Source: a candidate division TM6 bacterium GW2011_GWE2_36_25 (GTDB lineage: Bacteria; Babelota; Babeliae; Babelales; UBA12409). From it: a stretch of 64,000 nucleotides of DNA. The notes under the pieces were generated by a model that was given only the letters and a program-made list of their open reading frames with translations, did no database searches and was not told the DNA's origin. Made by a program: the position numbers and the translations under genes. This document shows, one piece after another, positions 24,104 to 24,420 of the stretch. Within the stretch, counting starts at the first letter, position 1; each line of letters starts with the position of its first letter. The stretch spans positions 84,722-148,721 of the forward strand of contig LBRU01000001.1 in NCBI GenBank assembly GCA_000991575.1, given 5' to 3'.

Positions 24104-24147
24104 TGTGGATAACTATGTGGATAACTATGTGGATAACTTGTGGATAA
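24104..24147 (-). repeat. array of four perfect DnaA boxes (TTATCCACA), 11-12 nt phasing
   Basis: tgtggataa at 24104-24112, 24116-24124, 24128-24136 and 24139-24147. Confidence 0.9.
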
Positions 24148-24245
24148 CTTTTTTTGCCGCCCGAAAAAAGGCTCCCAATCACCAATCTCAGATGGCACCC
24201 TTTAAAACGCTGATTCAATCGGGCCCCGCAAGACCACCCGCCGAC

Positions 24246-24276
24246 TTATCCACCGGTTATCCACAAGTTATCCACA
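24246..24276 (+). repeat. array of three DnaA boxes, 11 nt phasing
   Basis: ttatccacc 24246-24254 (8/9), ttatccaca 24257-24265 and 24268-24276. Confidence 0.9.
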
Positions 24277-24334
24277 TAAACCACGATCATTCAATGTGTT
24301 GATCTGAAGGCTTAATTCGAAGGAAAATTTTGAG

Positions 24335-24343
24335 TTATCCACA
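24335..24343 (+). promoter_or_regulatory. perfect DnaA box next to GC clamp
   Basis: ttatccaca followed by aaaaaa ggcgccaccc. Confidence 0.85.
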
Positions 24344-24360
24344 AAAAAAGGCGCCACCCA

Positions 24361-24420
24361 TTATTATATATAAATAAAGTAATATATATTTTAAGTAATT
24401 ATAAAGACAAAACTTCTTTT
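24361..24420. other. AT-rich tract, possible DNA unwinding element
   Basis: ttattatatataaataaagtaatatatattttaagtaattataaag, directly after the GC clamp. Confidence 0.5.

Follow-up and report, generated by a model that had tools for sequence, protein, structure and literature searches.

The gap between udg and nusA

The window, by which we mean the whole 64-kb stretch of DNA analysed, contains a 601-nt gap (23915-24515) bounded by two plus-strand genes. To its left lies udg (23345-23914), encoding a family-4 uracil-DNA glycosylase (UDG; NCBIfam TIGR00758, E = 2e-56), and to its right nusA (24516-25568; TIGR01953, E = 2.5e-93), followed by infB. Profile searches of the window ORFs identified genes for an M16 peptidase, a ComEC-like protein and a C11 peptidase on the udg side, and for a WecA/MraY-like transferase, nfo and eno on the nusA and infB side; they found no mobile-element genes beside the gap. 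The NusA of the window falls among proteins that bear the names Candidatus Babeliales, Dependentiae or candidate division TM6, and two groundwater-metagenome contigs match the window, LBRK01000001.1 (GCA_000991385.1, 227,645 bp) and DOIM01000009.1. The gap has the same sequence in 8 contigs from NCBI, ENA, JGI and Logan assemblies, and since these assemblies differ, it is not a product of repeat mis-assembly.

Some other contents of the window deserve mention. The nusA gene has a GTG start, overlaps infB by 14 nt and is not preceded by rimP (24516-27279). IF2 is short, 574 aa, and the infB start is annotated variously (557 or 574 aa in loci L001 and L002). An RNA-repair cluster occupies 13495-17872 on the minus strand, with genes for a LigT-like 2′,5′ RNA ligase/phosphoesterase (13495-14262), RtcB (15965-17419) and archease (17432-17872); in L014, RtcB and archease are likewise found to the left of the predicted origin. 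Among the three secretin genes (1355-3115, 32864-35311 and 37528-39867), the last two form, with PilM-like (35903-37531) and GspC-like (39864-41012) genes, a type II secretion / type IV pilus-like block (32864-41012) which is large for a small genome. Four large ORFs, 29466-31484, 42234-43889, 45048-48446 and 50445-53111 (672, 551, 1132 and 888 aa), are without any match in Pfam or NCBIfam, and a no-Pfam ORF of similar size (626-741 aa) is found after nfo, in the same position, in L009, L011, L157 and L158.

The gap was described at the outset as devoid of any credible ORF, and this was borne out. Its ORFs are short, run through arrays of DnaA boxes and have no support; the one at 24105-24302 translates as VDNYVDNYVDNLW..., which is simply the boxes read in frame. 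An Rfam search of the gap returned no family at threshold, and RNA or coding content was rejected. In L014 (9611-9805) gene callers have placed a 64-aa "gene" on the DnaA-box arrays, of which 24105-24302 is the window counterpart. Gene calls across such arrays are likely a recurrent mis-annotation at origins of this type.

Seven perfect DnaA boxes and one 8/9 copy had been noted in the gap, and their positions, strands and phasing all proved exact. Farthest from nusA is a distal array of four perfect TTATCCACA boxes on the minus strand (24104-24147), starting at 24104, 24116, 24128 and 24139, that is, with start spacings of 12, 12 and 11 nt and 2-3 nt between boxes; its orientation is opposite to that of the remaining boxes. 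A 98-nt inter-array spacer (24148-24245), of 54% GC versus 36% for the window, separates it from the proximal array on the plus strand (24246-24276), composed of TTATCCACC (8/9) at 24246 and of TTATCCACA at 24257 and 24268, phased by 11 nt. After a further spacer of 58 nt (24277-24334), whose length but not sequence is kept in relatives, comes a lone perfect match to TTATCCACA (24335-24343, plus strand), oriented as the proximal array and lying beside the predicted unwinding region. The window holds 10 perfect boxes, compared to 0.62 +/− 0.80 in 100 dinucleotide shuffles (maximum 3), and 7 of these 10, together with the 8/9 copy, are packed into 240 nt. The question of whether equally dense clusters occur elsewhere had also been raised; none was found in the 80 kb examined around the gap.

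The three perfect TTATCCACA boxes outside the gap (30659-30667, 46001-46009 and 56747-56755), versus about 0.6 expected for the whole window, are all on the minus strand and sit in plus-strand ORFs (29466-31484, 45048-48446 and 55705-56871) of the right replichore. Metagenome contigs were scanned for arrays of the same kind, defined as three perfect boxes with 2-3 nt gaps, and at least 120 loci were obtained (L032-L151). Their GC content ranges from 20 to 68%, and at least 9 adjoin a dnaA; 107 of the 120 listed have no dnaA, NusA, UDG, IF2 or C11-peptidase match in the sequence examined. Phased arrays of consensus boxes being this common in metagenomes, arrays alone are neither diagnostic nor novel. 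Two loci of the scan, L085 and L059, carry at least 10 tandem boxes.

Immediately after the lone box the sequence reads A6 (24344-24349), then GGCGCCACCC (24350-24359), then an AT-rich tract (24361-24420) which we predict to be the DNA unwinding element (DUE). The succession of A6, GC segment and some 60 nt of A/T, pointed out in the preliminary description, is therefore real, the tract being 90% A+T. By nearest-neighbour calculation it is also the least stable duplex in the 64 kb, whether windows of 40, 60 or 100 nt are used (starts at 24360-24365). Between box and tract, the 14-nt spacer AAAAAAGGCGCCAC (24344-24357), made of an A-run and then a GC-rich segment, leads to a candidate DnaA-trio region on the minus strand (24358-24368), where CCA TTA TTA on the plus strand corresponds to 3′-GGT AAT AAT-5′ on the minus strand. 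Placed 14 nt past the lone box, the first of these trios is degenerate and the next two are canonical. The basal unwinding system (BUS; Pelliciari et al. 2021) has been defined as comprising a DnaA box with at most 2 mismatches, a spacer of at most 16 bp (most commonly 13) and at least three NAN trios, with 3′-GAT-5′ as trio consensus, above all nearest the box (PMC8287927). Because the first trio is degenerate, this lenient rule applies to the window only at the 16-nt spacer limit, where ATT ATT ATA (24360-24368; 3′-TAA TAA TAT-5′) provides the (NAN)x3 run. The basal unwinding layout attributed to this site needs this nuance as to its first trio (CCA TTA TTA), canonical trios being found in relatives. 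The region left of the distal array was considered as another unwinding site and rejected, as it has no canonical trios and is not among the least stable segments.

Between the tract and nusA, an extended −10 element, TGATAGACT (24464-24472, plus strand), follows a T-run and displays the conserved pattern TGnTAnnnT. In 17 of 19 loci this pattern precedes nusA by 51-97 nt, and in the alignment it stands out as a conserved block. It is probably the nusA promoter, judging from its conservation, and would be directed away from the unwinding element. A generic scan for sigma-70 promoters and terminators gave nothing exceeding shuffles. Within the 58-nt spacer, an IHF-like site, GATCAACACATTG, is present on the minus strand (about 24295-24307). 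Motifs of this kind, with at most one mismatch, were scored in 7 of 18 loci, a weak excess over 1.6 +/− 1.1 in shuffles, none of them exact and their orientation varying. The spacer is a possible bend or loop segment.

Skew switch and position relative to dnaA

A skew extremum falling in the gap, on the complete replicon, had been proposed as a check on the origin reading; over the sequence analysed the extremum is found there. The minimum of the cumulative GC skew, which is also the best two-segment changepoint, lies at 24460, and it remains at 24460 when the window is extended with the same contig to 79.9 kb. These 64 and 79.9 kb make up the scope of the skew analysis, the organism being represented by contigs of 227 kb or less. 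Over the 64 kb, plus-strand GC skew is −0.175 left of the gap and +0.164 right of it. Positive skew is seen in none of 20 genes on the left and in 25 of 26 on the right, irrespective of coding strand; third codon positions give −0.33/−0.44 and +0.36/+0.33 for the left and right sides respectively. As gene and third-position skews are uniform on each side whatever the strand, the switch is not an effect of gene orientation. In bacteria, leading strands have an excess of G over C. Such an excess is seen on both sides of the gap, on the strand leading away from it, which by the leading-strand rule is the polarity of an origin.

The absence of dnaA and dnaN from the window, reported earlier, was confirmed. 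No Bac_DnaA or beta-clamp domain was found by Pfam in window ORFs of at least 120 aa, and tblastn with E. coli DnaA, a query validated against Pfam, gave no match in the window. Beyond the window, the genes called over about 6 kb leftwards and 10 kb rightwards include neither dnaA nor dnaN. Altogether, no dnaA or dnaN was found from about −30 kb to +50 kb of the gap, and tblastn with the same type of Pfam-validated DnaA query detected no dnaA within +/−10 kb of the predicted origin in relatives. The proposal of an origin uncoupled from dnaA therefore holds across both ranges. Adjacency to dnaA is usual for oriC, not defining. Origins lying apart from dnaA are a recognised situation (PMC10225481; PMC8287927 on E. 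coli). The dnaA-linked array loci of the metagenome scan were considered as a seed for the lineage and discarded; L055, L074 and L133, three of the nine, fit the dnaA-dnaN-recF (-gyrB-gyrA) arrangement of other phyla, as judged by ORF sizes and order only.

The layout in other Dependentiae

Relatives were gathered from 18 nusA neighbourhoods (NusA identity 57-81%), 4 loci of the metagenome pattern scan and 3 other sub-lineages, 25 in all. A common ordered layout was found upstream of nusA in 25 of these 25 other Dependentiae genomes, a count, like those below, of non-independent events, the relatives being phylogenetically linked. It begins with a distal array of 3-5 minus-strand boxes phased by 11-12 nt, continues with a spacer, usually of 97-101 nt and free in sequence, and with a proximal array of 3-4 plus-strand boxes phased by 11 nt, and leads to the lone box, always 161-284 nt before nusA, and to an AT-rich tract. 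From the last array box to the lone box the distance, start to start, is 65-68 nt in 18 of the 22 resolved loci. In most relatives the lone box is invariant or has one mismatch (CTATCCACC in L022 and L023, TTATCCCCC in L029). L022 and L023 have the layout with degenerate boxes, and L027 ends at a contig edge, leaving the box-proximal part alone visible. Almost all perfect boxes of the relatives' 21-kb loci are in the nusA-upstream gap, and the skew minimum of each locus is at most about 530 nt from the nusA start in 18 of the 19 loci having both flanks. Synteny designates nusA as the constant neighbour of this gap and udg as a variable one, absent in three sub-lineages (L156-L158) where the C11 peptidase gene adjoins the gap instead.

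Alignment indicated that boxes, trios and spacer lengths are conserved, while spacer sequences are not. Lengths kept without sequence argue against an RNA or coding element and for a geometric constraint. In L017 (9620-9780), whose NusA is 70% identical, most of the spacer of about 98 nt is missing and the two arrays are nearly adjacent, so that the distance between arrays, in contrast to that separating array and lone box, appears to be dispensable. The high GC content of the inter-array spacer was dropped as a candidate conserved feature, as it is true of close relatives only.

A spacer of 13-14 nt and similar make-up (an A-run, then a GC-rich part) separates the lone box of relatives from CTA/TTA repeats on the plus strand, corresponding to 3′-GAT/AAT-5′ on the minus strand with GAT first. 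At least three canonical CTA/TTA trios are present 13-17 nt after the lone box in 15 of 23 loci, compared to a background of 0.0009. With three added lineages, all positive, the count is 18 of 26 loci, for a background of 0.09%. In L103 the boxes are in tandem, the spacer measures 4 nt and the trios are CTA x4. The A+T fraction at the position of the unwinding element is 0.70-0.95.

The GAT-first pattern is seen in one box-to-trio orientation only. In E. coli, the sequence of R1 is TGTGGATAA on the T-rich strand to which DnaA binds, 3′ of the DUE. Oligomerisation is reported to require a 5′-tail encoding the trios (PMC8287927). From the geometry of E. coli oriC, this 5′-tail statement and the GAT-first pattern, we infer, partly by analogy, that the putative trios are oriented relative to the lone box as given above.

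Interpretation, alternatives and known origins

We predict with high confidence, on the basis of its sequence, that the gap 23915-24515 serves as chromosomal oriC in a bacterium of the Dependentiae (TM6, Babeliales). The preliminary description had hesitated between an origin and a datA-like sink for DnaA. The skew switch, the least stable duplex and a layout conserved in 25 genomes support the former; the sink is not supported, as skew switch, trios and least stable duplex all coincide with the cluster. The predicted origin is of the standard DnaA-dependent type, a known kind, and does not adjoin dnaA.

For DnaA binding, the site of unwinding, looping and the effect of the promoter, we infer the following course. 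DnaA would fill the high-affinity boxes, forming two opposed oligomers on the phased arrays and occupying the lone box at 24335. From this box, ATP-DnaA would extend across the 14-nt A/GC spacer onto the minus-strand trios and open the adjacent 90% A+T tract (24361-24420), where the helicase would be loaded, and forks would depart bidirectionally. Through the 58-nt segment, the proximal array can probably loop round to contact the lone box or the strand that has been opened, much as IHF brings about between R1 and R5M in E. coli. It may be, as a speculation drawn from the analogy with gidA, that the nusA promoter, firing away, aids melting through negative supercoiling upstream.

It is very unlikely that initiation is split, with a second box/DUE module beside dnaA sharing it or being its true start and the cluster at nusA acting mainly as an auxiliary DnaA-loading or regulatory site. 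Bipartite origins flanking dnaA are common, as exemplified by the dnaA-linked array loci of the metagenome scan, and the dnaA locus of the lineage was not seen within the regions searched (−30 to +50 kb here, +/−10 kb in relatives). The origin of Babela massiliensis, moreover, has been set 152 nt upstream of dnaA (PMC4378268), an assignment by which the phylum may not be uniform. Against a split, that call was made from GC skew alone, in a genome whose start was placed at the predicted origin (PMC4378268), the skew minimum is exactly at the gap in the window and also in 18 of 19 relatives, and a complete module of box, spacer, trios and AT tract is present at the gap. The Babela assignment deserves a re-check, given that 25 other Dependentiae genomes have module and skew switch at nusA.

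Slightly less probable again is a site where DnaA binds for another purpose, a datA-like titration locus or an operator of nusA-infB, with a skew switch there by coincidence. The boxes do lie upstream of the probable nusA promoter, phased arrays exist in many contexts without dnaA, and DnaA is known to regulate transcription from clusters of boxes close to genes that flank origins (PMC13438810). However, the coincidence of cluster and skew switch recurs in about 19 genomes, trio module and least stable duplex adjoin the lone box, and 120 nt separate the end of the nearest box from the −10, so that this box and the promoter do not overlap. DnaA could nevertheless have a regulatory role there alongside origin function. 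An artefact, finally, whether a chimeric assembly, an inversion of recent date or the origin of an integrated mobile element mimicking a skew switch, is extremely improbable; the source is a metagenome assembly and repeat arrays can mis-assemble, yet the 8 contigs from NCBI, ENA, JGI and Logan are identical over the gap, the gene order on both sides is kept in the 25 other genomes, and the gap is not flanked by mobile-element genes.

Returning to the chromosomal oriC reading, we propose a more general version of it, tentatively, as our confidence here is a little below even. In much of the Babeliales, oriC would occupy a fixed site upstream of nusA, uncoupled from dnaA, and would combine a canonical Bacillus-type box/trio module with opposed, high-affinity arrays resembling those of E. 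coli, at an offset of 65-68 nt. If this hybrid reading is true, fixed lengths with free sequences imply a loop-back that needs no sequence-specific bending site, and the Babela origin is either a lineage difference (relocation of the origin or of dnaA) or a mis-call.

What is new here is modest, namely the exact anatomy, the fixed nusA-upstream position in 26 genomes and the conserved spacing; knowledge of how bacterial origins work is unchanged by it. It does provide a precise, sequence-level predicted origin for an uncultured host-dependent phylum, of use for orienting and checking metagenome-assembled genomes and for deriving growth rates from read depth (peak-to-trough ratio). The layout joins the box/trio module of Bacillus and the opposed arrays of E. 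coli, the two best-studied origin designs, and with its conserved spacing it offers a clean natural system in which loop-back and continuous-filament models of unwinding can be set against each other.

Within the phylum, the origin of the cultured Chromulinavorax destructans has been predicted at 651,641-652,233 of 1,174,272 bp, a 593-bp region in the middle of the record, from GC skew and TTATCCACA boxes (PMC6561590). The two cases share the phylum, the criteria, a region of about 600 bp and a location away from the record start; they differ in that the C. destructans paper gives no anatomy and no flanking gene names (PMC6561590).

Counting from the unwinding element, the window has the DUE, the lone box, about 58 nt, an array oriented as this box, about 98 nt, and an array oriented the other way. 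The order in E. coli oriC is DUE, R1, IHF site, left array, R2, right array and R4; it lies between gidA and mioC, away from dnaA, and gidA is transcribed away from the DUE side, as is nusA here. Both origins thus lie elsewhere than beside dnaA, and in both a single strong box stands at the DUE, oriented as the nearer array. In the published description of E. coli oriC, R1 adjoins the DUE, a segment is bent by IHF, and two opposed clusters each have four sites with 2-bp gaps (PMC6070618). The counterparts in the window are two opposed arrays, in which 4 boxes on the minus strand and 3 on the plus strand are set 2-3 nt apart, and a spacer between the DUE-proximal box and its array. In E. coli this spacer is IHF-bent; the IHF motif of the window is no more than suggestive. 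In contrast with the low-affinity ATP-DnaA sites of E. coli, the arrays here are made of consensus or one-mismatch boxes. The flanking genes are others, a central R2-like box is lacking in the window locus, and there is no enrichment of GATC, with 3 copies in the 601 nt versus 3.7 per kb overall. The trios of relatives are canonical, whereas the BUS score of E. coli is reported to be weak (PMC8287927).

By analogy, the lone box at 24335 is the counterpart of R1 of E. coli or of box 6/7 of Bacillus subtilis. With incC of B. subtilis the layout shares the succession of box, spacer of 13-14 nt, trios and AT-rich tract, GAT standing nearest the box in relatives, and the likeness extends in L103, to its tandem boxes, 4-nt spacer and CTA x4. 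In contrast to incC, the trios of most loci adjoin one box and not a tandem pair, the predicted origin is not between dnaA and dnaN, and the first trio of the window is degenerate. E. coli datA, like the locus described here, is a cluster of DnaA boxes away from dnaA; it differs in having neither skew switch nor unwinding module, whereas the window locus has both.
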